Source of the DNA: Botryllus schlosseri
Taxonomy: Eukaryota
Assembly (NCBI GenBank): GCA_051294905.1
Contig: CM119371.1
Location: forward strand, 39,992,001-40,056,000
Length of the DNA stretch: 64,000 bases
Direction of reading: 5' to 3'
Part shown: positions 3,904 to 56,413 of the stretch, piece after piece
Numbering within the stretch: the first letter of the stretch is position 1
How the letters are laid out: the number at the start of each line of letters is the position of its first letter
Notes under the pieces: model-generated
Databases searched by the model: none
Told to the model about the DNA's origin: nothing
What the model saw: only the letters and a program-made list of their open reading frames with translations
Position numbers and translations under genes: made by a program

Positions 3904-5025
3904 CAGTGGTTCCCAACTTTTTTCGACTCATCGCCCCCTTTTGAAGCTCCACACCGATCATCGCCACTCAAATATTGGGAACCGAAAAACAGCACTTCGT
4001 GACCCCCCTCCCCCGAAAAAAACGTTGGTCTTTGGCCCCATAGTTTAATAAACCAAACCCCTGTCCCCCTCAGTTAGTGGGCTTTTTTCGCTACATATCA
4101 GTTTTACCCTATTTCATGTACTGTTTGGTGAGTCACCGTATTTCGCCTAAACTGCGCTAAGCGCGACAAATTGATATAATTCATTTTTTAATCGGTCAAT
4201 ATAGTCGATGTGGTATGTTGGAAAAGGTAGGACCCCTTGATAATAAATGTAACATCTTCGGGCGGAATCGTTGTTATATTGACTTCTTTACATGATGCTA
4301 TTTCGTGACCTCCTATATCTGCTATGTCAGAAGATATGGAAACCGTCAAAACGTACCAAACTAAAAGACGCACATGATTTCATATTGGTATTTCTTTACT
4401 GGCAAATAATATTTTCCTTGCGAGATGGCATTTGTGCTGTAAGGTTAAAGTCGCCATGACAGGAACATTCAACATTCGACTCCCGCCGTTGAGGCGCCTA
4501 TGGGCAATTAAACATATATGTATATATATCGAAGTTTTCGGTCAGCGCAAGGGCATTCCCTTTCAGCCAATTTCTTCTCGATGATGATCGTTCTGGCACA
4601 CTTCTCGGAGTGGCATGTTACATGGCCTCTAACTTCATATATCTCGGTGCGTCGTGGTGCAGTAATGGCTGACGCCGAAGTCTCCCATTTCCATGAATCA
4701 TGCGTATTTTTGTTGGGTGACGGGGACCCCAACAACAAGATACATGAAAAAATTAAATTTTTAGAAAAAGTCGCATGAATTTATAAAACATGACTCTATC
4801 ATTCATGTTGATTCACGAAATAATTTTGGGCTTCCTTCGATTTCGCCCTCCCCCCACCCCCAATTGGGGGTTTAGGGTGCGATAGTTACGGTCCCAACTC
4901 CAATATAGCCGTTTTAGCGCGCCCTCGCCCCCTATCGCCCCTTCGTCCGTTTTCGCCCCCCTATCGCTCCCTTCGGTATTTTCGCCCGCCTAGACCGCCA
5001 AATTGCCGGCCCCAGGGAGCCACTG
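3904..5025. mobile_element. hAT-type MITE with TCGCCCC repeats
   Basis: CAGTGGTTCCC...GGGAGCCACTG; TSD ATCTAGAG/ATATAGAG (7/8). It interrupts a repeat whose paralog lies at about 20620-23330. Confidence 0.8.
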
Positions 5026-5496
5026 ATATAGAGCAAAATACGCTACCTCAGTTGTTTTCAAACTGTGGGTGGTGAAGCTGCGGTCAACTGAAAATTTTGT
5101 ACGCGCTAGGTGTAATTTACCTCCAATTTATGATTATCACTGCTCTGCGTGTAGTCATAACCTTCTAAAACTATCCGTTGGGATTGCTGGCATTCTGTGA
5201 TATGACTATTTTGCTAGCATTCTGATGATATGACGATTTTTGAAGCTTCGAGACAAGTCAAGTCCTTTTTCCGAAGTGACTCGAGTCAAATCAAGTCATA
5301 GGAAAAAGTTGACTCGAGTCTGATTCGATTCAAGTCATGACTCGAGTCATCCCAACACTGGTATGGAGGAACAATTTGCCGATATGAATGTGTATATTGC
5401 CTTGGCGTGCAATGGCCCACCACTGCTAAGACCAAGACGCTTAGAAAACGACTTCGGGCTCCCCCAATGCCTAACCCCAATATCCATTCTTTAGTC

Positions 5497-8919: not shown

Positions 8920-9720
8920 GGTATTGATCAGGTGATACTAATTAGCTAGCGTTTATAACAATACTGAAAACACATATGATAATTATATGCTATGATGTAT
9001 CTATGCTGAACAACAGGCTGAGACGAATCAATCCGATATACTGAACTATTTGCTAGATCCGATAGTTATATTCGAACAATACGACCTACAACAGGGGTAA
9101 AAAACTCAAATTGCGTCGGGGGCGGGACCGGTCAAAATATTCCAAAATGCTACGTCATGCTGGTGTCCTTCGTTTGACTTCTTTGTTATCATGCATATAT
9201 TTATATAGATAAATATGTGGATCATGGATGACAGTATACTATAGTATTATTCTAGCAAGTATAGCAACACCTTTATTCGCGTAAAATGGATTTGGCACCA
9301 ATTCGGTGATTGACCGGTTGAATATAATTTTGAACCGCCAAATCAGTAATGTTAACGACGATATGCGTTGGTATATTTCAATGCTCCTTTCGCTTTAGTC
9401 GTAATAGGGCCTCATCTCTGTGTCTGCATCGTGAGAGAATCAAGTGCAAACGCGGACGATGAAATTTCCTGGACAGTGACCACAAAGGAAATGATACATA
9501 AACTTGACAATTTCTAGTTTCCACATGTTTTTTATGTTTAGGACACCGTGTCTTTTTAGCCGTGATTTATTGGACGCACCACCTGGCCTTAATTGGGGCC
9601 CTGGCTATGAGGCTATCAGAAGACACCAATTCAGTCAGCTCTGTCAGTAAATATTATCACGTGAATATCTGTAATGATGAGTCCTATTTTTAATTCATAT
9701 ATGCCTCTGCAGCCCGCGCC

Positions 9721-9849
9721 TGTTTCTTGAATTTTCTTGAGTGCCCTTTTCTTGAATTTTTCCTGATCTTATTTGCGTCCGTGGCACACAAGACCTTAAC
9801 AGGTGATAAGTGCCACTGAAAACCTTTAATAATAATAATAATAATAATA
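9721..9849 (+). mobile_element. 3' end fragment of a non-LTR element with hairpin and (TAA)7 tail
   Basis: GTGGCAC...GTGCCAC stem followed by (TAA)7 at 9827-9847. AGCCCGCGCC is duplicated at 9711-9720 and 11571-11580. Confidence 0.55.
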
Positions 9850-11570
9850 CGACGTCGAAGAGCCACCAGCACTGGCGACATGAACTTCAAAATGGGTGAA
9901 ACCATAACAGAATTGAATGCCGAAGATCACTATAAATATCTAGGGATCTGTGAAAGCGACAACATTAAACATGCTGCAATGAAATCGAGTCTAAAAAAAG
10001 AATACATCAGCAGGCTCAAGTCAATTCTCAAAACTGAACTCAATTCCAAAAACAAAATCAATGCCATAAACAGTCTTGCAGTGCCTGTCTTGAGATATAG
10101 CTTTGGTGTGGTGAACTGGCGCAAAGATGAAATTAAAAAATTGGACACGAAGACGAGAAAACTGATGACAATGCACCACATGAATCACCCAAAATCTGAT
10201 ACACAAAGACTGTACATCCCCAGAAAAAAAAGGTGGTCGAGGACTACAAGAAATTGAACAAACTTTCAAAACAGAAATCATCGGCTTGTCACAGTAGGCA
10301 ACATCAACAACAGCGATAACATTCACTGCAAACTCATTGCACAGGAAGACAAACAGCGCAAAACAAAATCTCTGAGCTATCGTCACGACAAGTACGTCAG
10401 AGAAGTCAACATGGAAAAAGCTAACCTGTACACTGCAGAAAACACTGTTGCTAAGCCCACAACAATAGCAAAAGCAGCACGAGTCCAATACAAAAATGCA
10501 ACGCTCAAAATGAGAGAAACAATATGGGAGTCGATGCCTCTTCATGGACAGCACAAGAAGTTAACTTCACAGCCCCATGTAGACGAGCTTTCATGGACCT
10601 GGCTATCCAGCTCTGGCCTGAAACTGGCAAGCGAAGGATTCATTTTCGCAGCACAAGACCAATCGCTTCCTACAAAATACTATCGCAAAAGAATTCTGAA
10701 GCAAAACACGGACGGCAAATGCAGAATGTGCCACAAACAAAATGAAACTGTAGCACATCTCATGTCCAGCTGTGGTGCACTTGCAGCTACCGAATACACA
10801 TGCAGACACAATAGGATTGGTCACTACATTCATCTTGAATTATGCAAACATTTTAACATCACCACTTCGACAAAAAATTGGTACGACTACAGCCCAGCAC
10901 CAGTGACAGAAAACGAACAAGTAAAAATTCTGTGGGATGTACCAGTTATAACTGACCGCGAAATCAGGAGCAACCGCCCGGATATAATCGTCAAACTAAA
11001 AAAGAAAAGAGAATGCTTATTCATTGAACTGGCTGTCCCAGCTGATCACAACCTACTGCAAAAAGAATCAGAAAAAGAGTCCAAATACGCAGATCTCAAA
11101 ATGGAATGTGAAAAAATGTGGCGATGCAAAATAAACATTGTACCGATAGTCATTGGCGCTACAGGGGTTGTGAGCAAAAAACTCATGAGACATATCCAAC
11201 AAATTCCGGGTAACGTTCGATTTGACGTGATCCAAAAGATCACATTATTGGGCACTGTGCACATTCTTCGGAAGGCCTTGAATGCACCACTGGACTAAAA
11301 TTACACTTGTGAATCACAGCATGATTTCTGTAATTTCGATTCTTCATCTTCAATCATCTCTACCTCTGCTCTGTAACCCTTGCCAATTCTTCATCTGCTG
11401 CAATTCTGTAAACTTCTCCATGTATTGCATAGGAATAACAATTTTAATGTATTACTGACATTTTAAAAATTTACTCCATTCTCGCCATTTTCCTTTGGGG
11501 GCAGGTTGCTCCCCGGATTATGTGTGTATTTACCAGTTTTACTGTGAATAGAGAAAATAATAATAATAAT
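9850..11570 (+). mobile_element. 5'-truncated R4/Dong-like non-LTR retrotransposon (RT C-terminus, CCHC knuckle, restriction-like endonuclease), disabled
   Basis: YKYLG, RLYIPRKKGGRGL (frameshift in the A-run near 10224-10231), in-frame TAG near 10296, CRMC..ETVAHLMSSC, RHN, RPDI, FIELAVP, KESKY. Stop at 11298; 3' UTR ends in (TAA)4. Confidence 0.9.
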
Positions 11571-16790: not shown

Positions 16791-17031
16791 TTTTTCAAAT
16801 CTGAACAACCCTTATGCACATGCAAGTTTGAAGTAAATACTCGCAAAATAATTAATAATATAGGCGCACACATAAAATATCCCAGCTACAGGCGATCAAT
16901 ACTGCAGCGATCTGCGTGATTATTATTACAACATGTGGTTGGTGTTATAGTGGCGAGAATTTCGAACTATGTCTATACCCCACTCCCTAATTTATAATCC
17001 TAATGGGAGAGCGTTTGAAATAGGCTATGAC

Positions 17032-17225
17032 CAATGTTCCCTCTAAGCTGCGCACGTGCGCAAATGCGCAGTGCTTTCACGGTATCTGCGCACAGAAAAT
17101 CTAAGTTGCGCACAAAAAATCCGAATTGATGACCGTTTCTTTAGTCGTCACGCACTGTTTTCCTAGGGTCTGCGCAGTGAGTTGGTTAGTGTGCGCAGAC
17201 TCATCAAAAATTAGAGGGAATATTG
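17032..17225. mobile_element. 194-bp hAT-type MITE (TGCGCA motifs)
   Basis: CAATGTTCCCTCTAA...TTAGAGGGAATATTG; perfect TSD GCTATGAC. Confidence 0.9.
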
Positions 17226-17350
17226 GCTATGACCAATAAGATATCTCGGTATGCAAATTGTATAAACGTGCGGAGCGGACAATGTTTCAGAAGAAATGTA
17301 ATTATCAATCGCATTGAGCAATTAGTACGTTGCATCATGATTGCTTGTGA

Positions 17351-17377
17351 CAGGGATATCTAGTCTAGATATCCCTG
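17351..17377. mobile_element. 27-bp TIR-only element
   Basis: CAGGGATATCTAG-T-CTAGATATCCCTG flanked by perfect 8-bp TSD GCTTGTGA. Confidence 0.85.
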
Positions 17378-17683
17378 GCTTGTGAGCTGTCGTCACTAAA
17401 GGAATGAGGTATAGTTGGAGTTGTCTAAACTGCCAATTATTGCGTCACATGATATAGACTATGCTCGGAGACGTCGTGTCTAGACTCAATAGAATATCAG
17501 ATCAACATTACTGTTGTCATTATTATATCAAAAAAATCATGTCATTTCAAGTGCTCCTAAAACCGTTGCACAAGCGCGTATTTGTACCTATATATCGTTC
17601 AATAGTTCATGTTCACACATAGCAAAAGCGGTCGTATTGAGTGAGCAGCGATCAACGTACGATTCATGAAGCTTGCACAGATC

Positions 17684-19703
17684 CAGACATGGGGTGATTA
17701 CTTCATGAATGTAATCGATTGCGATTACGATTACTTCGGAATCACGCGATTACGATTACGATTACGATTACAGCAAAATCAGGAAGTAGTCGATTACGAT
17801 TACGATTACATTGGAAAAGTAATCACGATTACTCACGATTACATTTATTTTGCATCTTAGTAGTTATATTTGAAGACAATACATGGATTGCGCTGAAAAG
17901 GCCTAACGAGATAACATATTTCTTAAAAACAGCCGCGACATTTGCTTGTTACGTCACAATGCACATATTGCCCATTTTATAAAGGACGATTTATCGCACC
18001 CAATGATTTGCATTATTGCCAGGTCCACAACTGCTGCACCTTAAATTCTCCAATAGGGTGGGGAGCGTGCTCGGAGGCGACTCAAGAGTATTTCGTGAAC
18101 CAACATAAATTATAGCGTATCCTCGACAGATTTCATTAACTTGAAAATTCTCTTTGAGCTTTGCCATTTAAATGTCTCTAGATAGCTTGATTTCGAAATG
18201 CAAACGTCTCCCCTCAAGAAATAAAGGATGCATAACTCATAGTAATAGGCATTATGGTGCCAGTCAATACCGCGCCCCGACACACCAAAATACATATGCA
18301 GTTTAGGCCAACATGCGACTCTACGAAGTGTGCTATCAAAGAAAGACGTTGGTGGAAATTTGGGGTATGTGTCCATTGTCGATAGCCGCGCTGGGTGGGC
18401 GTGACTAACAGTCCGGTCCTTCCAATCTGAGCCCACGATGCAAATGCCACGCAGGCACCCACAGAGCATTAGTCATGACAATTTGTGTGTGCGTCTCACG
18501 AAAGTTTTTCTTCTAGTCTGCTAAGTTTGGGCCACTACAATATCTTTTGTCTATATAACAGACCGGAGGTCACGAATTAACAACATGCACTACAGTAATT
18601 ATTGCAAGATACCAGATGTTATAATTATGGATTACGCGCCCCCTGCTCTTCAGGTAAGTCTGACCATCGGAGGCTGAGATAGGAATAAAAATGTAATATA
18701 ATGCAATTACCGATGTTACTGACGAAATTAAATCTTCAAGTTACAAATTGACTACCCTTTGGGGGCCCAAGACCAACGTTTGGAGAGGAGGACGATTTTG
18801 CTGTTTTGATCCTGATTCTAGCTACAACCCACGCTAACATGGTATATAAGCCGATGGCTATGGCGGCAGGTCCAAATCTTCAGTAAAGAATTGTGAAATA
18901 GCAATTGACGCCCGTTTTGAGTAGAATAATATGAGAATAAGAGCAGGTGAAAATAAAATTCTGCCTTCAACTTAATACAGATAATGTAATGCAAGCTGTC
19001 ATTACGAGAAACGGCAAGAAAACGGCGTGGTTATGATATGTATCAGCAACTGTTGATTTTTAATGCTTTGTTGTGGAAACCGTAATATTTTATTTGATGA
19101 GTACAAAATTTCAAATCTTTGTCTGGTGTACGTTCGTACCAGCACATAGGCCTACTGCTCGCCAAGCAGCAACGGTCAAATTGCGTTCAACTAAGCATAA
19201 CCAAACATCAATACAAAAGTTGCTATTTTAAACTAGGCAGAGAAGTGACTAATTATCCTGCAGCGAGGTAGTGGCGTCTGAAATATATTGATAACCCGAT
19301 ATACTGAACGGTGGGTGTTTTACAATCACACTAATGTACATCGACTATCTATTTACTATAAGTGTGGAATGTGGATACTTCTTACGCAAAGACGAGCACA
19401 GCTAATAAGCTACTTCTGACGTAATAATGAGCAATGGCATTTGAAAATCAGACGTTTGTGACTCAATAACTGGTATAATATCTCTTGCTTGTTAACGAAT
19501 GTTCAGTTTATGTCACAGTCGTCGTACAAATAAAAAGTAATCGTTCTTTCACAAAGAAATCGATTAAATATGCGAAGTAGTCGATTACGATTACGATTAC
19601 TTCGACATTTTTTCAAATGTAATCGATTGCGATTACGATTACTTGAAAATGCTGTAATCGTCGTAATCGATTACGATTACTAATCGCGATTACCCCATGT
19701 CTG
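17684..19703. mobile_element. TIR element with GATTAC subterminal arrays
   Basis: CAGACATGGGGT...ACCCCATGTCTG with (GATTAC)n at both ends. TSD not evident. Confidence 0.8.
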
Positions 19704-20774
19704 GTGTCAATCATCATCAAATCTCTGCATTTATTGGAAAAGTCCCGTATCCCGATAATCATCACGTCTCTGCATGCGGTATAATTACTCAGTTTTGATG
19801 TAGTCTATCCGCGCACACATGTAATAATCGACATGGCCGAATCAAGCACCTGACCGAATCTTACCGTAAGATAGATAAGAATAAGAGATGCTAAGAGATG
19901 CTCCCAGACGTCATTGCACCATCACAATACCAAACTCACATACAATGCAACATTCGAAGCTTATTTTGGGGAGTTCCAGGACCACGAACAGAATGAATTT
20001 ATATTTTCGCAATCAGTACCGCGGTAACTTTCGATTGATACTCGTTTTATAAAATTTAGGCTGATGCAGGACAAGCCGGGCAAAAATTACCGTCAAATTG
20101 CCTTCGACCGAATGGAAAGTGTGACGTACACCAATTTCACTAAGCCGTGAGATTTGCCTGTGACCACACCATATAGGACACCATGGTTTGTTGCGTCCAT
20201 GGTTGTACCAAGTCACGGCATTCCGAATCACAAAAGCCCTTCTCTGTTTGTAACGTTTGACGTGACGAGTACGAGTAATTCTACAGAGGGTCGCGCTCAA
20301 GTCCAAATCACAATTTTCAGTCATGAATCATCAACGGGTCATGTTTTACCATATTAAGCAAGTAATCTCACGTAATAGTTGATCTTCCACTGAGTGGTAA
20401 CTGAGTGGAAACTGATGTATTAGTGTGAAGTTTGATGAGTAGTTTCAGGCTTCTGGAGTAGTTTAAGAGCGAATTTTAAGGTCTCAAAAATTGGTAGTAA
20501 ATATTGTCGAATACTTCGAAATCCAAAATGACGTCGTGGGCTGCGCAAAATGGTCTCGCGGGCCGCGTGTTTGAGACCTCTGACTTAAAGTCTATTGACA
20601 AACGGGGATTATTTAACACAGGGATGGTGTGAACGTGAGGTACAGGTTCGCTTTATTTGTAAGAACCTTGTATATTTGGAGGTTGACCTTGGCAAACGCA
20701 CATTTGGTAGGTTCTGCACTGTGAGCCATTCCCATATGCTACAATGTTTAATTGAAATTCTTCGCATTTTAACG

Positions 20775-22913
20775 CAATGTTGGGATCAAGTCATTACCTT
20801 CGAGTCACGAGTCATTTCGAGTCATTGCACATTTTGACTCAAGTCAAGTCAAGTCATTCGATTTTTAGAGGTGTCAAGTCACGAGTCAAGTCGAGTCAAG
20901 TGAAGTCACGAGTCAAGTCGCAATTCAAGTCAAGTTGCCTTTTTGAAGAATAAGGCATGATTACGTCATTGCATTTTGCTAGCTGTCTGAATAATGCAGA
21001 TTAAGTGGTCATTGATTTTGAACCAGTGAACGAATATATACTTAAATTTACATGCATGAAGGCGCGGTATCGCTGCTGTATTGCTTACATATACGTAGCA
21101 CTGCTAAACTACGAAAGTAATTGCACAGCTTCAGTTTATAGCTACCGGCCAAAATAGAGAAACGAATTGATAAGATGCACTACATTACCCATTTACAAAT
21201 TGATATGATACAATGCGAGCCTACGCCAATGTTTGAGGACCATATAAGCCAGAGGTCTAAAACACGCGGCCCGCGGGCCGCATGCGGCCCGCGACGACAT
21301 TTTGGATTTTTATTAATTTGACAATATATAAGTGTCACATATATCTTTTCAGGTTATAAAGTGAATATTCCCTCTTAAATTACCCCGAAAGCCTGAAACT
21401 ATTCATCAAACATCACATCAGTATCACATCAATTGCAAACGGTGCCGCAGTGGAAGATTCACTATTTCGCCACATTTCCAATTCATTTTGACAAAACCTG
21501 ACCCTTAGACGATTCGTGACTGAAATTTGTGATTTGGACTTGGACGCGACCTTTTTTAGAATTACTCGGATTCGGGCTAACTCGATGGCGAAATGAAAAT
21601 GACTCGAGTGGACTCGAAATACCGTGAATTTGTTAGAACCATGGACGCAACAAACTAGTCGCGTCAAGGGGAATAGCAATAGATCAGAAGGTCACAGATT
21701 GGTATTTTGCTAACTAAGCAAGTAGTTTTGGCAACCATTGGCAATCTGTTAGTTACATCTTTGGTCGCTAAACCATATTATTAGGGTCACTCAAAGGTTC
21801 CGATAGTACCGTAGTGGTACGCTCCAACGATGTAACAACAATGGGTGTTCGACGTTCCGACATTTCAATCACAGCAATATATTTATATCATATTTATATT
21901 TTTCCTGCTCCTATTATGGAAGATATTTGGCCATGAGATTAATAGCCTACTTATCAGAAGTATACCCGAATCCTGGATTGGAATTACAATGATCAACCCA
22001 AAAATGTTTTGATATCAGATCAGTCTCTATTATCAATCTGTTAAATTCAAAATATTCACAGTTATAGCTGCAAAATTATAACCCGGTAGCTTTTATGATG
22101 GCATCATACGTTTGTCCGTTCATATGGTGTCTATATCTTATAATTAATATATATTATGTTTAATCATTGAGTTGAGTACAGCAACAATTCTATTCAAATA
22201 GTTTTAAATGTGATGATTCTTTTCGTGTCATGCCTAAATTGATACATTTTGACGATGTGTGTTTACTGTCAGTCTGGTGGATCGGCTCACTTTCAATAGG
22301 ACAATTCATTCCCGCCAAATAAGGCCTACTTGGAAAGACATAGAATACCCCTATAAATGATGCGGCCCGCGGCGTCGTCAGAACTGGAAAACTGGCCCGC
22401 GAGCACATTTGAGTTTGAGACCTCTGATATAAACTATATTCGAACTCGATTTCAATAAAACAAGAGGTTTGGTTAAGGTAAGAATAGAAAATATACATAG
22501 ACATTTTGTTATTGAAATACTTCACTATACTATAGTTTACAACAACGTATGCTGTAAGTCTGGATTACTTCGTTTGCGGTCAATTTATTTGTGAGAGAAC
22601 AGTGAAGGCTTAGTAAAACGCATGATCACTGAATGATTGGTTGCTCTCACGGGTTATACCAGCGGTTCGCAAACAATCCGAACATATGCAAGATACAATG
22701 ATTTTTATCGACATCGATTACTTGATGACTTGAAATTGAATCGTGAATTTTGCTCCGAGTCACGATGAGTCAATCCACGTTTCTGATACGCATAGTGAAG
22801 TCAAGTCAAGTCAAGTCATTTTAGCCAAGTGACTCGAGTCAAGTCTAGTCATATGAAAAAGATGACTCACGTCTGACTCGAGTCAAGTCATGACTCGAGT
22901 CATCCCAACACTG
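20775..22913. mobile_element. GACTCGAG-family hAT MITE with nested MITE
   Basis: CAATGTTGGGATC...ATCCCAACACTG; decayed TSD TTTTAACG/TGTCAACG. Homologous to 55469-56308. Confidence 0.85.
21250..22426. mobile_element. hAT-type MITE (nested)
   Basis: CAGAGGTCT...AGACCTCTG; TSD ATATAAGC/ATATAAAC. A related end lies at about 20410-20582. Confidence 0.85.
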
Positions 22914-23625
22914 TGTCAACGCCGGACCACTCTATGCGAGGCGCTAGCAGCTTATAAAAATCATCACTAATCGAGCATGCACCCTTGCTAATCTCAAAAA
23001 TTTTGCATGCGCCCTCACAGAATTTTAATTGAAAAAATCAGATTTCCGTTCGTGAATACTTAATGCTGTGAGCCTGGTCCGCAATCACACAACATCATGG
23101 AAAAATACACTAGGCTACTATATCAGTAATCAGCGAATGATACTTATTTAACCAATCAATGAAACTGAAATAAAATCAAGCAGACGTACGTGATCCATCT
23201 TGATTTGACATATTCGATTTGAAATACAGGGTTGAATTAGCAATATGATGTCGCGTGACGTCATATCCACACATTCGCGTTCACACAGAACCTAACGAAA
23301 ATTTTCGCGTACACATCAACCTCAACTTTCCAGGGGTACGCGCCATCCTGGAAAGTACGCATCAAAATAATCTGGACTTTTAACGTAACTGATTGCTATA
23401 ATCTATTCGTATCTTTACAATAAACGGTGTAGGTGTACCTAGATAAACTATACTTATATCTATAGCACATATGCAATGCGCTAGTTAATAGCCCTTTCAC
23501 GAAATGCGAATACGACAATAGTAGACGCCGGCTATTGAATGAATGGTGACACCTGACACGCGAGAAATACAACAATGGATGCACGCTTAGGTGACGCTGC
23601 CAACTATTGTTCATTCCGTCGCTAT

Positions 23626-24052
23626 CAGAGATGAGCGGATTTGAAATTTCTATGTCTTAATCCAATCCAAATCCGAACCTTCAAATCCAAATCCAAATCC
23701 TAATCCATAATTTTTTCATATTAAAGTCCATGTCCAATCCTAATCCGATTCCAACTGGAAATTCAGAAAAAATACTAATTTATGCAATGGAGTGATTCGA
23801 AAATTTTCTTTCACAACCAACGATTCACTTGATTCAAGATAACTTAGTAACCATAAGTACATTAATAACTGATCTGAATAAAGTTTGTCGCCATTCGCCA
23901 CACGACATTTCAATCTCCCTGAAGATAGGTAAATCCAATCCAAATCCTAATCCGTTCCAAAAAAAATGTCTAATCCAAATCCAATCCAAATCCGACAAAA
24001 TTTCACAAATCCTGTTTTTTCAAAACCTAATCCTAATCCATGCTCATCTCTG
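23626..24052. mobile_element. hAT-type MITE with AATCC arrays
   Basis: CAGAGATGAGC...GCTCATCTCTG; perfect TSD GTCGCTAT. Confidence 0.9.
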
Positions 24053-24330
24053 GTCGCTATCGGAGATTGAGAGAGAAATGAACAACTAAACATTATCGAG
24101 TCACATACGCAATGAGATACACTTACACTATTAGTATCAATATCAAAATATAATATGGCGATATTGTGGCATTGGATCAGTACAAACAAATCCTTGCACT
24201 CTTAACTTCGTGAGATACAATTTTACAGTACAGTATTCGTCAAAGACTTTCACATACTTGAAGAGACTCTGTGGGGTACAGAACTTTAATATACATTTTA
24301 ATAATATATTCATAGTGAAAATATATTAAA

Positions 24331-24375
24331 ACCCGAAGCTTTTCGAGCTGACACTTTTCAAGGGCAATCGTCAGC
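24331..24375 (-). ncRNA. Minimal type I hammerhead ribozyme (U3:A8 core variant)
   Basis: Exact reverse complement of 27071-27115. Confidence 0.8.
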
Positions 24376-24477
24376 AAATGAAGAATTTCAAAAACATGCA
24401 TCTAGCTACATTGCATACAACCAATTATGACGTCATAGAAACAAACAACATGAAATACAGGCAAACCGCGAGCGCAG

Positions 24478-25986
24478 CTATTGGCCAATTTTCAGATTCA
24501 CTAAAAATTCCTTCTGCTGACACAAGCGCGGTCGGTGGATTTTAATATAAGTCGATTCCAGTGCGGACAGATGGAAATTAGTGCGGCCTCTGCCTAATAT
24601 AGAAAATCTTTCATCGCAATAGTTTTTAGCGCAAGTTGCATTCTCAGCCAAATGCTTGCCGATGGCAGAGTTCATAGCCATGGCCTGATTACGTTCTAGT
24701 AATCGCAGATCAGTTACGGCTGCGTCTTCGCGAGAGTCCAGTGTGCGTGATCTAATAACGCTCGGAACATGTTGTTAGATGCGTTCCTGCAAACGCTGAG
24801 TTGTTCTTCCCACGTACCGACAATCACAGTGGCACTTGAAATCATAGACTATATTGCTTTGTTGAGAAGCAGGAAGAACATCTTTGCGCGTTGCGGGAAG
24901 CAATTGTTTGGTGGTAAACACAACATTAGTTTTTACGTTATCGTAACAACGATTTACAGCAGAAATCAATTGCTTTTCAAACCGGGAAGAGATGGGGCCC
25001 AGCCACGGTAAATGTATATATACATTTTCCTCAGACCGTGTGTTCGTGTTTTGTGATTTGTTGGGATTGAAATTCCTGAGTTTTCTGTCAACAGAACTCT
25101 TGATGATGTGTTCGGGGTACCCGTTATCCATTAGAATTTTGCGGATATATTCTAGCTCCGCGTTTAATTTTTCCTCCGAACAAATCATCAAGGCTCTGTG
25201 CACCAACGTGCCAATCAAATTTAGTTTACGGCGATTTAGGCTAAAAGAATTCCAGCGTATATAATGCCCTGTAAACGTTGGCTTTTTGTAAATCGAAGTG
25301 ACAAAGCTAATACCCCGTTTTTCCACTAGAACGTCTAAGAATGGTAACGAGTTAGCACGCTCTTTTTCAAATGTGAATTTTAAAGACGAGTGTAGAGAAT
25401 TCAAGTTATCAAAAAAGTCATCGAACTCCGTCTCATTTTGACGGATAACGAAAGTGTCGTCGACATAGCGACGGTACATGAATGGAGGCTTGGTTTCATC
25501 TGCCGCGAAAAGTCTGTTTTCATGGAATCCCACAAATATATTGGCTAAAATCGGGCCAAGAGGGCTACCCATAGCTACACCGTCGGTTTGCATGTAGATG
25601 GTATCGTTAAAACTCAACTCAACAGAGCAAGTAGCCGTATTAAGAAGTTCAACGAACACTTTACGCGAGAAGGAAGGTGGTGCTAAATCACCACCACCAT
25701 ATAGCGCGTCCGCACAGATATCAATGGTCTCCTTCAGCGGCACGTTCGTGAAGAGGCTAACGATCTCATATGAACCGAGAAACATATTCGAGTTTGGAAG
25801 GTCGGTTGTTTTCATCTCGTGCGCGAATGTAAACGAATCAGCGACGCAATGCGAATCATACATGGAACGCACTGGCTCCAAAATACCGATAAGCTACTTC
25901 GCGAGCTTGTGCTGCACCGATCCAATCATAGAAAGAATTGGTCGAACGGGCACGTTGGTTTTATGAGTTTTCGGCAGTCCGTACAT
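24478..25986 (-). pseudogene. Penelope RT-GIY-YIG ORF, 5'-truncated, two nonsense mutations
   Basis: YGLPKTHK, SLFTNVP, GVAMGSPLGP, RYVDD, LPFLDV, IYKKPT, NIVY..C.C..YVGRT. Stops TAG (25894-25896) and TAA (24775-24777) read TGG and AAA in the other arm. Confidence 0.95.
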
Positions 25987-26054
25987 AAGACTCTTTGGGG
26001 TACAGAACTTTAATATACATTTTAATAATATATTCATAGTGAAAATATATTAAA

Positions 26055-26099
26055 ACCCGAAGCTTTTCGAGCTGACACTTTTCGAGGGCAATCGTCAGC
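26055..26099 (-). ncRNA. Hammerhead motif copy with U4>C core change
   Basis: As 24331-24375, but the core reads TCGAAAA. Confidence 0.7.
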
Positions 26100-26109
26100 A
26101 AATGAAGAG

Positions 26110-26968
26110 CTGTACGGACTGCCGAAAACTCATAAAACCAACGTGCCCGTTCGACCAATTCTTTCTATGATTGGATCGGCGCAGCACAAGCTCGCGAAGT
26201 GGCTTATCGGTATTTTGGAGCCAGTGCGTTCCATGTATGATTCGCATTGCGTCGCTGATTCGTTTACATTCTCGCACGAGATGAAAACAACCGACCTTCC
26301 AAACTCGAATACGTTTCTCGGTTCATATGATATCGTTAGCCTCTTCACGAACGTGCCGCTGAAGGAGACCATTGATATCTGTGCGGACGCGCTGTATGGT
26401 GGTGGTGATTTAGCACCACCTTCCTTCTCGCGTAAAGTGTTACGCTGGCCCCATCTCTTCCTGGTTTGAAAAGCAATTGATTTTTGCTGTAAATCGTTGT
26501 TACGATAACGTAAAAACTAATGTTGTGTTTACCACCAAACAATTGCTTCCCGCAACGCGCAAAGATGTTCTTCCTGCTTCTCAACAAAGCAATATAGTCT
26601 ATGATTTCAAGTGCCACTGTGATTGTCGGTACGTGGGAAGAACAACTCAGCGCTTGCAGGAACGCATCAAACAACATGTTCCGAGCGTTATTAGATCACG
26701 CACACTGGACTCTCGCGAAGACGCAGCCGTAACTGATCTGCGATTACTAGAACGTAATCAGGCCATGGCTATGAACTCTGCCATCGGCAAGCATTTGGCT
26801 GAGAATGCAACTTGCGCTAAAAACTATTGCGATGAAAGATTTTCTATATTAGGCAGAGGCCGCACTAATTTCCATCAGTCCGCACTGGAATCGACTTATA
26901 TTAAAATCCACCGACCGCGCTTGTGTCAGCAGAAGGAATTTTTAGTGAATCTGAAAATTGGCCACTAG
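26110..26968 (+). pseudogene. Penelope RT N-fragment joined to GIY-YIG by ~650-bp internal deletion
   Basis: Near-identical to the minus arm. It jumps from FSRKV (about 26440) to the sequence matching about 25000, removing YVDD. Confidence 0.92.
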
Positions 26969-27070
26969 CTGCGCTCGCGGTTTGCCTGTATTTCATGTTG
27001 TTTGTTTCTATGACGTCATAATTGGTTGTATGCAATGTAGCTAGATGCATGTTTTTGAAATTCTTCATTT

Positions 27071-27115
27071 GCTGACGATTGCCCTTGAAAAGTGTCAGCT
27101 CGAAAAGCTTCGGGT
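27071..27115 (+). ncRNA. Minimal type I hammerhead ribozyme (U3:A8 core variant)
   Basis: GCTGAC-GATT-GCCC-TTGAAAA-GTGTCAGCTC-GAAA-AGCT-TC-GGGT; predicted cleavage after UUC at 27111. Confidence 0.8.
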
Positions 27116-27268
27116 TTTAATATATTTTCACTATGAATATATTATTAAAATGTATATTAAACTTTCACATACTTGATATCATCCGATATATTCTACTAAG
27201 AAACAGAAGCACTAAGCAGCATCCACGTGACTCAATATGAATGCAATGGATTATAGTTGTGAAGTGCA

Positions 27269-28050
27269 CAGGGCCGTAACTGCGGCAGCCCATGCCCCTA
27301 GTTAGGAGGGGCAAGCTCAATGGGGCCTAAAATAAGATCGTCTATTAGCATTAGGTATAAAATATTTTTTCGGAAATTCGTGCAACTTAAAAAAAAAATT
27401 CGCGCCAATAGAGATTCAAAGCTGCCAAATATCGTTTTATTGGATGCTTCTCTAAGAAAAAATACGCGCGATTAATATAAATTGGTATTTCTGCGTCGGT
27501 CATTACCGAAACACAACTCACCAAGACACAAGTTTTTATGCCATGCAACATGCGAGCTCAAAAAGTGTGCCAGATTGAACATCAGCGAGAAAAACTGGGC
27601 CGAAAAGGGCTGCCCTTAATGCTGACCGAAAACTTCGATGTATTTACATATACATACAGGACCGTAACTGCTGCACCCCAAACCTCCAAATTAGGGGGGT
27701 GGACGAGTTCAAGGGAGCCCAAAATTATTTCGTGAATTAGCATAAATTATGGACTATATTATTTGAAAATTTAGGCAACTTTCTAAAATCTTCTCGCGCT
27801 TTGCGCTATTTCCAATTACGAAATGTCTTTATTATTTGGGACTCTTTCCCAATCAAAAAACGCGCAACATTTATATAAATGGCCATTACCGCAACACGAC
27901 GCCCAAGACATATAAATATTTAGGACATATTCGATGCAACTCCAAGAAGTGTGCCAGAGCGATCGGCAGCGCTAAAACCTTGGCCGAAAAGGACTGCTCA
28001 GTGCCCATACGCTGACCGAAAACTTCGTTATATAGGCCCATACAAAATAA
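27269..28050. repeat. Two diverged tandem copies (~390 bp) of a MITE left end
   Basis: CAGG(G/A)CCGTAACTGC at 27269 and 27657; each copy runs to GCTGACCGAAAACTTCG. Confidence 0.7.
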
Positions 28051-28153
28051 TATAGGTTTAATTTTCCATAGGCGCCTAAACGACTGGCGCCGAATGTTAC
28101 TGTCTTGTCAATCTGAATCTAGGAAGACGAATACCATCTCGGAGGGGAAAATT

Positions 28154-28181
28154 CAGGGATATCTAGAACTAGATATCCCTG
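28154..28181. mobile_element. 28-bp TIR-only element
   Basis: CAGGGATATCTAG-AA-CTAGATATCCCTG; perfect TSD GGAAAATT. Empty site in the inverted paralog near 4400-4430. Confidence 0.85.
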
Positions 28182-29389
28182 GGAAAATTATATGCCAGTA
28201 AAGAAATACCAATTTGAAATAGTGTGCTGTGTCTTTTAGTTTGGTACGTTTGAGCGATTCTCTATTTTTTGCTATAGCATATACCAGTGTTGGGATGACT
28301 CGAGTCATGACTTGACTCGAGTCAGACTCGAGTCACCTTTTTCGTATGACTTGACTTGACTCGAGTCACTTTGCTAAAATGACTTGACTTGACTTGACTC
28401 GTCGTATCAGAAATATGGATTGACTCGTGACTCGGAGCAAAATTCACGAGTCAATTTCAAGTCATCGAATAATCAATGTCGATAGAAATCACTGTATCTT
28501 GCATATGTTCGGATTGTTCGCGAAACACTGATGTAATCCTTGAGAGAGACCAATCATTCAATAATCGTGCGTTTTACTGAGCCTCCATTGTTCTCTCACA
28601 AATAAATTGACCACAAACGAATTGATCGAAGCTTTCAGCTTACTTTGTCGAAAACTAGTAGTAAAGTGATTTAATAAAAAATTTCTATTTCTACTCCACG
28701 TTCTTACCTCACCCAAACCTGTTGTTTTATTAAAATTGAAATCGAATATAGTTTACACTCCTCAACCATTGGCGCAGACTCGAAGTGTATCATATCAATA
28801 TGTATAAATGGGTAATGTATTGCATCTCATCAATTCGTTTCTCAGTGGCGGCTCGTCCTATAGGGCAACTGGGGCATTGCCCCACCTAAAATTCTGTTCA
28901 ATAACAATTCAACCATTTATAGACGCACAGCAATCAATATATACCGAGATCACAGCGAAACCCGCGTTCTTCATGTGCTTTCGCTTGCAAACGCCCATAC
29001 ATAGCGAAGTCTCTGCGAAAATCGAATTCTCTTCTGTGTTTTCGCTTTGTGAATGCCTAGCCGGGGCTTGCCCCGGTAGCGCTCATAACAAGCTTTCACT
29101 ATCTATTCTCTCAAAGCCGCGCACAATAAAGAAACGGTGATTTACTCTCTCCTATTCGTAAAATGGCCGAGCAACCGGGGCAAATATGCCTACTCGCCCT
29201 TAAGGTGTGATGTAACAATCGTATCTATATCTGAACTCGGTTACCGTAATATGCGTAGAGTCGACCTTTGCTGGTATAGGTCGATTTTGACGGTGTTTCG
29301 CACCATGATAATTCTTGAAACTTGGTATGATATGTCGTGAAGGTAGTATTTAACACTGCTCCAAGTTTCAGGCTTGCTACTTAAAGATA

Positions 29390-30749: not shown

Positions 30750-31767
30750 TAACCAGAGATGGCCAAAGTCCGGTTCAGGAGCCGGAGCAGGATTTCAATG
30801 TTTTTTTACCTGGCCGGACTGGATCCGGATTTCGAATTTGGGGTGACGGTCGGATTTTAGGGTCTATCGATTTGCGTAATCTATAACTCTACCATGAAAT
30901 CAAAACGCATGCTACTAAGGATGACCTGATACTTGATTCGTGGCATAGGGACGATTCTTAGTTCACGTACATTTTGTAAAATAATCCTTTGATTAAAAAT
31001 AAATGAATAAAACATTTGTTACCACACTTCAAGTCACGGCGGTCGCTGCAACGGCTTGTTGCAAGACACGCTGGTATAGTGCTTGATTGGAGTCGACGCT
31101 ACAGCTTACAGTTCCTGTTGTACGCACTAGTCACTGACTAATGACCGCTCTGAGTATACTCTTGCAATCCTGATCACACACGCAGATCCAAGGAGCTTTC
31201 TTTACTAGCACAGAACAGCCAAATAGTAGTAATTAGTGGTCAGAAACTTGTAGATTTACCAGGTTCAATGATACTGCGGTTCAATAAGAAATAGAAAGAA
31301 TAAATGAAGCGAAATGGAGCCAATTGTCTATCTTACGTCTGCCGCGCCAGCGCGCCCACCTCCATATGCGGGCTCTGAGAACACGTGCCTCGCAGATTGC
31401 CTGTACCCGTGTGTGCCGTCACGGTTTTGGTTTGCGTGCGGCCTACTTATGCTTTCGCGCATGACAGGCGTTTACATAACCAGAGATGGCCAAAGTCCGG
31501 TTCAGGAGCCGGAGCAGGATTTCAATGTTTTTTTACCTGGCCGGACTGGATCCGGATTTCGAATTTGGGGTGACGGTCGGATTTTAGGGTCTATCGATTT
31601 GCGTAATCTATAACTCTACCATGAAATCAAAACGCATGCTACTAAGGATGACCTGATACTTGATTCGTGGCATAGGGACGATTCTTAGTTCACGTACATT
31701 TTGTAAAATAATCCTTTGATTAAAAATAAATGAATAAAACATTTGTTACCACACTTCAAGTCACGGC
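30750..31767. repeat. 291-bp direct repeat pair (30750-31040, 31477-31767)
   Basis: Copies look identical by eye, offset 727 bp. Each begins TAAC-CAGAGATGGCC and carries CCGGA motifs. Confidence 0.92.
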
Positions 31768-54072: not shown

Positions 54073-55468
54073 TAAGGAAAGTATCATCTAACGTATAATG
54101 AATGTTATTTATTTCTCGGAAGCATGGACCGGGCATAGTCCAACGTTAATTATATTATGAGAGTGTTTACATTCTAAATAGCCTGAGGGGCGGGGCGCCA
54201 AACGATTCAACCTTCACTACTCATGTCCACCTTGTCACGATGGACGCAATTTTTAATAGAATATTGATTGTTTTTGCATCGTTTGTGGAATAGGATTTGC
54301 TAGTGGACAACTAAAATCACACAACTTCATTTGAAGAAATCGCTTTTCATTTTCGTAAATCAACTAGCTGCTTTTTCTGCGGGATTATTGCTCGATTTGT
54401 TAGGATGCCATATCTGATTTTCATTGTCACTAGTGCATATTGATCAGCTGTTAAAGAAGTTAAAACGTCTGTAAGTCGCGTATATTAGTCTTCAGGCCTT
54501 TTTCAAAATATTTATGAAGTTCTTCTTTTGCAACACCTTAAAAATTGTTCGCGGCACACCTGAGAATCTGTGGTGGCACACAGGAATTACTGGGCTACAG
54601 ACTCAATACAAACTACTGTATTTTCAAAATGCGCAACTAGGACTAGACTACTCGCTTTACAAAACTCACAAACATAGAACACAAACTAGAACCCACAACC
54701 TTTGAAAATCCGCAACTAACCAAGTAAGTAGACTCAAGTCTAAAGCAACTCCTTAATTTTCATAATAGCCTAACGGTTTTGCACGCGAGTACTAGTTTAA
54801 AATGAGAGTTTCGACCCCCGAAAGCTATACCCAGTTATGCCACCGTTAGTAGTGATGACTCTGAGCTAGAAATGGCTGCAAGAACATCACGCAACAGAAC
54901 AATGGTTGCGCAAAATAACAGCAGCTAGTTCACCGTCAAAGAACTAGATTGATAGTTTGTACAAGTCTGGTCGAGTCCAAGTCTACATGGATTGAATGTA
55001 TGTTTGGCATCGGACAGAGTTTTATCGAGATGGCATTGATACATAAACAAGGAATCTGACGACCCACGACTGTGTTTGCGACTTTCTTCTTTTCAAAATC
55101 TGGAAAAAGAAATCATTTCCGCACGCCGATAACTAAAAAATATCGTTCTGCACTTACCTTTCACTTTGAACATGTGCAAAAAGATGGTTTCTGTTTGCAG
55201 GTGGTCGGAAGGGGGATGGTAAAAATCTTGCAAAAATATAAAGATAAATTCAATAACAATTTAAACAACAGCGAACGTACCACTTTACTATGTCACTACC
55301 TTCGAGTCAAAAGTCATTGCACATTTTGAATCGAGTCAAGTCACTAGTTTTTGGAGTTGACTCAAGTCAAGTCCAGTCAAGTCACCAGTCAAGTCAAGAT
55401 TCAAGTTAAGTTGAATTTTAGAAGTATGAGTGATGATGCTAAGTGATTACATTTTGTTAACTGGTTGA

Positions 55469-56308
55469 CAGTGTTGGGATGACTCGAGTCATGACTTGAC
55501 TCGAGTCACCTTTTTCGTATGACTTGACTTGACTCGAGTCACTTTGCTAAAATGACCTGACTTGACTCGGCGTCTCATAAATGTGGATTGACTCGTGACT
55601 CGGAGCAAAATTCACGAGTCAATTTCGAGTCATCAAGAAATCGATATCGATAAAAATCATTGTATCTTGCTTCTTGCATATGTTCGGATTGTACGCGAAA
55701 CGGTGGTGCAACCCATGAGAGCAACCAATCATTAAATGATCGTGCGTTTTACTGAGCCTCCGTTGTTCTCTCACAAATATATTGATCGCAAACTAAGGTT
55801 ATATAGTCCTCAACCACAGGCGCAGGCTGGAATTGTATCATATCAATTTGTAAATAGGTAATGTATTGCATCATATCAATTTGTTTCTCTATTCTCTATT
55901 TTGGCTGGTAGGCCTAACTATAATGCGAGGTCATGCAATTACTTACGTAGTTAAGCATTTCTACGTATATGTGAGCAATAAAGCCCCTTCTTGCGTTTAT
56001 ATTCAACTCTATATTCGTTCATAGGGTCAGAATCAATAATCACTCAATCTGTATCTCAGAAAGCTAGCAAAATGCAATGTCGTAATCATGCCTCATACTT
56101 TGAAAAGGCAACTTGACTTGAATTGTGACTTGACTCGTGACTTGACTTGACTTGACTCGACTTGACTCAAGTCACCTCCAAAATTCGAGTGACTTGACTT
56201 GACTCGAGTCACCTTCGAAAATCGATTGACTTGACTTGACTCGAGTCAAAATGTGCAATGACTCGAAATGACTCGTGACTCGAAGGTAGTGACTTGATCC
56301 CAACACTG
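55469..56308. mobile_element. Young 840-bp GACTCGAG-family hAT MITE (self-nested)
   Basis: TIR CAGTGTTGGGAT; perfect TSD CTGGTTGA. Confidence 0.95.
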
Positions 56309-56413
56309 CTGGTTGAAGGGTAGATTTAATTGACCAATTATCTTGAATCAAATAACGAATACGGTATATATAAATTTAAATAGCCTATACAAGCAAAATG
56401 ACGTTGTATAGAT

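Follow-up and report, generated by a model that had tools for sequence, protein, structure and literature searches.

The 64,000-nucleotide stretch of Botryllus schlosseri DNA analyzed here (the window) contains two short palindromes that are built from one common 13-bp arm but are bounded by different perfect 8-bp duplications (Table 1). When up to 2 mismatches were tolerated, the arm was found four times in the window, all four occurrences being exact and lying inside copies 1 and 2, whereas shuffled windows contained a mean of 0.87 and none of 100 reached four. Hairpins with an arm of at least 8 nt and a spacer of at most 12 nt number 53 in the window, and a flanking duplication of at least 6 bp accompanies only the two palindromes, which are near-perfect hairpins (z of -6.75 and -4.80). 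By chance, such a hairpin with a duplication arose 0.13 times on average per Markov simulation (n = 15). The coordinates, arm counts, and hairpin simulations thus bear out the preliminary description of this DNA, which had reported 27- and 28-bp palindromes of a 13-bp arm with perfect 8-bp duplications, and the evidence supports the view that both copies descend from transposon insertions, each with a true 8-bp target duplication. One reading of copy 1 is that two terminal repeats, trimmed to their outermost 13 and 14 nt, meet head to head. A permissive scan of the window for other scar families returned one weak AT-rich 7-bp case as the sole candidate.

Table 1. Positions of the palindromes, their duplications, and the surrounding repeats in the window
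Feature	Position	Strand	Remarks
Copy 1, left target-site duplication	17343-17350	.	GCTTGTGA
Copy 1, 27-bp palindrome	17351-17377	.	13-nt arm (17351-17363), 1-nt centre T (17364), inverted arm (17365-17377)
Copy 1, right target-site duplication	17378-17385	.	GCTTGTGA
Copy 2, left target-site duplication	28146-28153	.	GGAAAATT
Copy 2, 28-bp palindrome	28154-28181	.	arm (28154-28166), centre AA, inverted arm (28169-28181)
Copy 2, right target-site duplication	28182-28189	.	GGAAAATT
Empty target site in paralog of the copy 2 host repeat	4410-4417	-	7/8 identical to the copy 2 duplication
Old interspersed repeat hosting copy 2	27500-28283	.	approximate bounds; paralog at 4316-4894, ~65-75% identical
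Multi-copy repeat DNA around copy 1	16850-17690	.	stretch compared with read contigs; repeat limits may differ

Empty versions of both sites were recovered. The minus strand of positions 4316 to 4894 aligns across the copy 2 site with a 34-nt gap, so the empty-site paralog previously placed near 4400-4430 is real. For copy 1, an exact empty site is provided by read-derived contigs from three of four runs (X1, X3, and X19), which omit exactly 35 nt (17343 to 17377). The four runs, representing three samples and three studies, also yielded contigs of the copy 1 stretch that hold both arms around a 2- to 3-nt centre. At position 17363, the centre TT/AA accounts for 67-97% of the summed contig depth in all four runs and TTT/AAA for 13-16% in three of them. 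The commonest form among contigs matched to copy 1 is the 28-bp form with centre AA, as in copy 2; this tally counts near-identical forms only, the comparison covered the copy 1 stretch, and the 27-bp allele was not seen separately among the contigs listed. No loose end at the arm appears among the 24 contigs listed, beyond which there are 1027 further ones, an observation that speaks neither way.

Related sites in a second animal

The window's arm marks 120 loci in a second animal, which group into 56 flank clusters representing independent sites, in agreement with the high copy number suspected from the window. An 8-bp duplication with at most 2 mismatches was detected at 45 of the 56 clusters, whereas none of six shifted offsets gave more than 1 of 56. 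A duplication length of 8 suits 37 clusters, while lengths of 7, 9, and 10 suit 2, 1, and 0. The palindromes are 30 to 56 bp long, with 31-32 bp at 26 of the 56 sites. Their centres extend the arm into a longer terminal repeat with an abrupt limit at 19-20 nt: on the longer side, 27 clusters retain exactly 20 nt and 12 retain 19 nt (39/56 in all), although longer sides were permitted in the search, and 18-20 nt are kept on both sides at 7 of the 56 sites. This 19- to 20-nt tail is an estimate, as the full tail is followed in 27 of 43 cases by TAGA, which we assign to the other arm but which could instead continue the terminal repeat. Centres of 0-3 nt occur at none of the 120 loci, and the 1- to 2-nt centres of the window fall outside the range of the second animal.

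Centres other than the dominant form were observed at 30 of the 56 sites and are mostly unique. Some joints overlap by one base, some are blunt, and others contain templated inserts, part of which copy the flank of the site itself. A third, internal arm is present at 15 of the 56 sites, and at three of these the next 4 nt or more match the flank of the same site (mean of 0.09 after shuffling; 0 of 5000 shuffles reached 3), so those forms were made in place. A broader test of flank copying was not significant (9 of 29 against a mean of 6.2; 90 of 1000 shuffles).

Multiplication of the palindromes is partly passive, with 36 of the 120 loci being copies within one 2.1-kb carrier. Outside this carrier, 25 clusters have several members, and one identical element is shared in 22 of them; at least five contig-name series stand behind the 120-locus set among the 80 matches listed. 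The occurrence of different scars at the same site was considered as proof of independent excisions and rejected, as only 3 of the 25 clusters differ and all are otherwise explicable. The L069 difference is a mere substitution, and the L013/L073 and L048/L096 differences could be later slippage deletions. A later slippage deletion could also explain the 32- and 51-bp forms found in the carrier, and no clearly independent second scar at one site was found among these 25 clusters and the carrier.

Origin of the palindromes

Taken together, these data indicate that the palindromes are probably scars left by the excision of a cut-and-paste DNA transposon whose most likely superfamily is P. That they are scars of a staggered cut is, in our judgment, very likely, and if they are, the P superfamily is a likely source. 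A longer element with the 13-nt arm at both ends would have inserted and generated the 8-bp duplication, in line with the duplications and empty sites observed. Its transposase would then have excised it by a staggered cut that opened one strand at the element's tip and the other deep in the terminal repeat, leaving on each chromosome end a 3' single-stranded tail of outer terminal-repeat bases. End joining may have paired these tails, mostly through the final C of either tail and G13 of its partner, and fill-in and sealing would give the product suggested by the centre sequences, namely duplication, arm, short asymmetric centre, inverted arm, and duplication. From the centres AA and AAA, tails of about 16-17 nt are predicted for the window's species, and from AACTC and AAACTC, tails of 19-20 nt for the second animal; the 27-bp copy would have lost one additional base. 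In this tail-pairing model, tails of 20, 19, 17, and 16 nt produce palindromes of 32, 31, 29, and 28 bp with exactly the modal centres observed; the model is post hoc, it presupposes a C at position 16/17 of the tails in the window's species, and the mechanistic evidence comes mostly from the second animal rather than from the window's species. Such scars would be immobile, yet they could be multiplied passively inside larger mobile repeats, as was seen in the second animal.

The preliminary description had called for a search for longer elements or a transposase with the same terminal repeats. None was found in the window, at the 120 loci, or at 52 viral and bacterial loci matching a single arm, and no lone arm opens a long element in the ~460 kb of loci plus window. 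The single-arm matches (3, 48, and 1 loci) were treated as chance, since 0 of 52 have a partner arm and duplication, and the palindrome pattern had no match in viral contigs or in bacterial and archaeal genomes. A Pfam search covering 144 of the 204 longest ORFs and 6 shorter ORFs of the window (150 in all) revealed no P or THAP domain; the matches were to reverse transcriptase, GIY-YIG, fibrinogen, and one hAT dimerisation domain (L045). A real hAT element starting with CAGGG exists in the second animal. P membership is therefore inferred, the sequences searched having yielded neither a parent element nor a transposase with such ends. The 8-bp duplications of both window copies and of the related sites fall within the 7-8 bp of the P superfamily, and the layout of P donor sites (outer repeats kept, intact duplications, and microhomology, blunt, or templated joints) was recognized mainly in the second animal. 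P-type transposases make their long staggered cut in a GTP-dependent manner, which the scar anatomy may reflect, and the internal binding sites and subterminal repeats of a P element would have left with the excised DNA (PMC7776569).

Scars made by another superfamily that has 8-bp duplications and likewise cuts far inside its terminal repeat, such as Merlin, which is characterized by an IS1595-type transposase and its terminal motif, or an unusual enzyme related to hAT, are an unlikely alternative. The termini of hAT elements are CA/TA, and both such termini and 8-bp duplications are present here; the beginning of maize Ac is similar to the arm as well. A CAG end combined with an 8-bp duplication is shared with hAT, the CAGGG-starting element of the second animal belongs to this superfamily, and no transposase was found in the sequences searched. 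However, neither window duplication fits the hAT target rule nTnnnnAn (Hermes type) or nnnTAnnn (Buster type), and in the second animal T2 and A7 are both present at only 9 of 45 sites and T4 and A5 at 3 of 45. Counted by position, T2/A7 reach 28/77 and T4/A5 29/77 against a background of 0.30 (p = 0.14 and 0.09). A weak T3/A6 bias was detected (48/83 positions; p = 1e-7), for which no family motif exists for comparison, and P target conservation is called low (PMC3698922). Moreover, staggered cutting over such a length is described as a peculiarity of P (PMC7776569), and hAT excision footprints derive from hairpins on flanking DNA (PMC3499496). Together with the ~100-200 bp of each end that hAT mobility needs (PMC10368747), these points argue against the original hAT assignment.

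In vivo collapse of long palindromic (foldback) elements through hairpin or cruciform deletion, with no transposase cutting, would also leave near-perfect hairpins such as those in the window, but we regard this as quite improbable. Foldback collapse predicts a spread of arm lengths, whereas the arms stop at 19-20 nt at 39 of the 56 sites and none are consistently longer, though up to 56 bp could be searched; the modal centre is fixed and asymmetric, and the ~460 kb lack a lone arm opening a long element. The recurrent precise collapse of a longer element proposed earlier is supported in so far as it makes the palindromes a recurrent remnant of one, but a staggered cut in the terminal repeat, followed by end joining, accounts for this remnant better than palindrome collapse does. 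The same description had envisaged a mobile 27- or 28-bp unit. A genuine nano-transposon of 27-32 bp, moved in trans by some transposase, would fit the dominance of the 28-bp form (67-97% of depth) in the window's species and of 31-32 bp in the second animal, as well as the many independent sites with true duplications and the lack of a visible parent; it is nonetheless poorly supported and very unlikely. The other, mostly unique centres at 30 of 56 sites, some holding the site's own flank, tell against it, as do the 36 of 120 loci that are passive copies. The dominant forms are those that tail pairing predicts, fly P excision also has a dominant palindrome (PMC2895639), and the read tally was restricted to near-identical forms. 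Furthermore, P requires internal binding sites beyond its 31-bp repeat (PMC7776569) and hAT 100-200 bp (PMC10368747). Because one form dominates and no parent element was found, we leave an equally small chance that a 28-bp palindrome, first made as a scar, was itself recognised and moved by transposase. If mobile, this 28-bp unit would to our knowledge be the smallest mobile DNA unit. Finally, collapse of a long hairpin insert by the assembler, which had been raised as an objection, is extremely improbable. The 27-bp allele is not separately visible among the contigs listed, which cover copy 1 only, but contigs of four runs from three studies hold both arms around a 2- to 3-nt centre, with the 28-bp form at high depth, and 22 of the 25 multi-member clusters outside the carrier in the second animal agree on one element, with the same five or more contig-name series among the 80 matches.

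The reading as staggered-cut excision scars, if correct, has several implications. Natural scars, probably hundreds per genome, could reveal the cut depth of a transposase without biochemistry, an estimate that for one and the same terminal 13-mer comes to ~16-17 nt in the present DNA and 19-20 nt in the second animal. They would also show how invertebrate germline end joining treats long 3' tails and would tally past excision events that repeat annotation normally misses. Pipelines based on "TIR plus TSD" can mislabel such scars as tiny hAT elements. The structure is one already known from laboratory P-element excision in flies; in the mainly open-access literature searched, we found no paper on this arm family or on natural genome-wide P scars.

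Comparison with known systems

Non-autonomous hAT elements (Hermes, TcBuster, Tol2, and Ac) share the CAG start and the 8-bp duplication with the palindromes (PMC10368747, PMC3499496). However, the window units of 27-28 bp are far below the hAT end requirement (PMC10368747), and the palindromes present one common terminal sequence instead of each site's flank, unlike hAT footprints (PMC3499496). The two-TIR copies of Galileo are P-superfamily remnants consisting, like the palindromes as read here, of two terminal repeats and a short middle, but their repeats span hundreds of bp, their duplications are 7 bp, and they are thought to be mobile (PMC3573991, PMC3698922), whereas the units described here are 27-56 bp with 8-bp duplications. 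Zebrafish Pdre, a P-like element of a chordate, also combines 13-bp terminal repeats with 8-bp duplications (PMC10983969); its terminal sequence is different, and as the text consulted states no cut depth, the agreement in the number 13 is no evidence.

Of 66 isolates from excision of Drosophila P{wa} in Rad51-mutant flies, 14 carried a palindrome of 30 bp with an 8-bp duplication on either side (PMC2895639 Table 1; Chan et al. 2010), and the products at P donor sites also include blunt joins and templated inserts (PMC2895639). The Drosophila P element makes a 17-nt staggered cut and an 8-bp duplication (PMC7776569). The palindromes resemble Drosophila P products in their 8-bp duplications, in outer terminal repeats lying head to head, in a dominant short palindrome, and in blunt or templated joints. 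They differ in terminal sequence, in the predicted tails (16-17 or 19-20 nt, against 17 nt in Drosophila), and in a dominant joint that appears to be a one-base overlap with an asymmetric centre. Whereas the Drosophila products were induced in the laboratory, the putative scars described here are natural, inherited, and numerous.

Palindromes in the window and in sequencing reads

Re-inspection of the window sequence bore out the preliminary description of copies 1 and 2 exactly: each consists of a 13-nt arm and its inverted counterpart around a short centre, between 8-bp direct duplications. The paralog of the copy 2 host repeat lacking the insert, also claimed there, was likewise located. 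All four occurrences of the arm in the window lie inside these two copies, a count that 0 of 100 shuffles reached. Copies 1 and 2 are also the only 2 of 53 short hairpins in the window with a flanking duplication, versus 0.13 expected per simulation (15 simulations). The composition of the window is that of animal DNA, with about 40% GC and many Penelope-like, non-LTR and hAT-like repeats.

Coordinates of the palindromes, neighboring repeats and second-animal features (window positions unless a locus is named)
Feature	Position	Remarks
Copy 1	17351-17377	27 bp; duplications 17343-17350/17378-17385
Copy 2	28154-28181	28 bp; duplications 28146-28153/28182-28189
Paralog of copy 2 host repeat	4316-4894	No insert
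Very high-copy ~200-bp element	17021-17227	Within repeat upstream of copy 1; 207 nt skipped in contigs of 3 runs
AT-rich palindrome	9194-9219	26 bp; imperfect 7-bp flanking duplication; probably of chance origin
hAT-like repeat end	2910-2956	Matches the carrier's end at 91-94% identity (46-47 bp)
Penelope-like RT/GIY-YIG element	24282-27164	Forms a large inverted duplication with 99% complementarity between its 718-nt arms
hAT-like MITE family	55312-57116, 28285-28400, 22568-22913, 5248-5364	GACTCGAGTC subterminal repeats
Nested hAT-like MITE copy	55456-57116	631-nt inverted arms
Non-LTR retrotransposon, 3' part	9820-11298	Zinc-binding region (Pfam zf-RVT, under curated cut-off)
Perfect direct repeat, 291 nt	30750-31040 + 31477-31767	
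Perfect direct repeat, 160 nt	56259-56418 + 57113-57272	
Carrier, second animal	L016:2454-4567 (also L023, L075, L078, L071, L003)	CAGGGGTGTC ends; TA-centred 8-bp duplication (L016); scar inside
Repeated arm-plus-flank units	L101:301-399, L048:776-850, L001 near 3001	Several rounds in L101

Contigs assembled from 4 of 23 sequencing runs of the species (X1, X3, X19 and X20; 3 samples, 3 studies) were aligned to 16850-17690; X1 and X3 possibly derive from the same sample as the assembly itself. The copy 1 flanks are multi-copy in these contigs, and contigs of X1, X3 and X19 skip 17343-17377, giving the exact empty site in paralogs, with 8 ambiguous letters. One extra T at the centre, which equals the 28-bp form of copy 2, accounts for 77, 67, 80 and 97% of summed contig depth in X1, X3, X19 and X20, respectively, and two extra T (29 bp) for 13, 16, 14 and 0%. 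The preliminary description had raised a longer insert collapsed during assembly; since run contigs carry the centres of the 28- and 29-bp forms, the short palindrome exists in reads over the copy 1 stretch, where the 27-bp allele has no separate entry. The depth of the 28-bp form, about 20 to 430 times that of low-depth long contigs, suggests roughly 100 or more copies, summed depth being no copy number and some copies possibly being passive within host repeats.

The same arm in a second animal

Scanning for arm-N(0-30)-arm returned at least 120 loci in host-rich metagenome assemblies and no match in viral contigs or bacterial genomes. These second-animal loci have almost nothing else in common with the window (6 blast hits). 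Clustered by their flanks, the 120 listed loci fall into 56 sites, including a 2.1-kb carrier repeat with 36 loci, whose scar measures 32, 50, 51, 54 or 69 bp depending on the copy. One representative was taken per cluster, picked for the best duplication. Among these listed matches, insertion is accompanied by an 8-bp duplication (up to 2 mismatches) at 45 of 56 sites; with the offset shifted, no more than 1 of 56 qualifies, and no duplication length other than 8 fits. Mismatches in the duplication are common, with only 16 of the 56 sites perfect, though both arms are perfect by selection; the arms may perhaps have been corrected against each other.

The centres vary and extend the arm into two variants of a longer terminal repeat, with AAACTCC (20 nt) or AACTCC (19 nt) added. 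Across the 56 sites among the matches listed, the longer side ends precisely at 19/20 nt in 39, the shorter side is 13 nt long at 25 and 16 nt long at 12, and 18-20 nt are retained on both sides in 7. Full-length sides in the same set are followed by TAGA in 27 of 43 cases, which we interpret as the opposite arm with an overlap of one C, and the remaining 16 continue in 14 different ways. Palindromes at the listed sites span 30-56 bp (31-32 bp in 26 of 56), and none of the matches listed has a centre of 0-3 nt.

Proposed tail pairing and probable in-place repair

If two identical 3' tails met antiparallel, the first register pairing both terminal bases would match the C that ends either tail with G13 of its partner. 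In this post hoc model, a 32-bp palindrome with centre AAACTC would result from 20-nt tails, 31 bp (AACTC) from 19 nt, 29 bp (AAA) from 17 nt and 28 bp (AA) from 16 nt. These same forms predominate in the second animal and in the window's species. Model tails for the latter are the second animal's two variants minus 3 nt, with a presumed last C, and the 27-bp copy 1 would require one further base loss. Whereas insertion with duplication, the range of centres and the copying of flanks are observed directly, we infer that the cut was staggered, how deep it lay, how the ends were joined and which enzyme acted.

A third arm lies inside the palindrome at 15 of the 56 sites among the matches listed. 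At three (L001, L069 and L048) a copy of the flank of that very site follows it, a result that 0 of 5,000 shuffles of the flanks equalled; L101 and L066 look similar by eye and fall outside the rule of this test. Searching more loosely, for any 5-mer of the flank within the centre, gave no significant result (9/29; 90 of 1,000 shuffles). L001, L069 and L066 read in the order modal joint, arm, flank stretch, right arm retaining 16-20 nt of its own. At these three, a later tandem duplication would leave the additional repeat bases unaccounted for. They would be provided if synthesis started on one tail, ran along the other, was aborted and the ends then rejoined. Sites bearing two different forms were left uncounted, as later slippage could explain them. 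Repeated arm-plus-flank units resemble iterative templated synthesis at a break.

Comparison with hAT and P elements

The preliminary description had proposed tiny mobile hAT-type units as one of two options. According to PMC10368747 and PMC3499496, hAT elements require about 100-200 bp of sequence at their ends, show a target preference for nTnnnnAn or nnnTAnnn, and leave footprints arising from flank hairpins. At the 45 duplication-bearing second-animal sites among the matches listed, T2/A7 occupy 28 of 77 positions (background, 0.30; p 0.14), T4/A5 29 of 77 (background, 0.30; p 0.09) and T3/A6 48 of 83. We consider a truly mobile 28-bp unit very improbable. The carrier, with its TA-centred duplication at L016, does look like a real hAT element; its end, recognizable in the window, and the 13-nt arm are two transposon termini common to otherwise dissimilar genomes.

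The palindromes are a real feature, and the family is new while the kind of footprint is already known. The exact arm has no mention in the literature searched, whose coverage leaves out most subscription papers and repeat databases, and a 10-mer from it searched with "transposon" returned unrelated titles only. Among matches to a search for natural P footprints, the accessible parts of PMC3698922 and PMC3573991 describe no such scars; Figs S6-S7 of PMC10983969 may be relevant to chordate P junctions. Neither the window, the 120 listed second-animal loci nor 52 viral and bacterial single-arm loci contained an element combining these ends with a transposase, and a domain scan of 150 ORFs showed no P/THAP domain, so P superfamily membership is not established.

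PMC7776569 describes cleavage by P transposase at the 3' tip and 17 bp into the repeat, and the generation of 8-bp duplications. In Rad51-mutant flies, repaired donor sites consist of two partial repeats meeting at a joint, with a duplication on either side; a 30-bp palindrome makes up 14 of 66 isolates (summed over Table 1) besides blunt and templated joints (PMC2895639). By analogy, the palindromic units appear to work like P donor-site scars: in the window and in the second animal, as in the fly, what are probably the outer parts of a terminal repeat lie head to head between 8-bp duplications.
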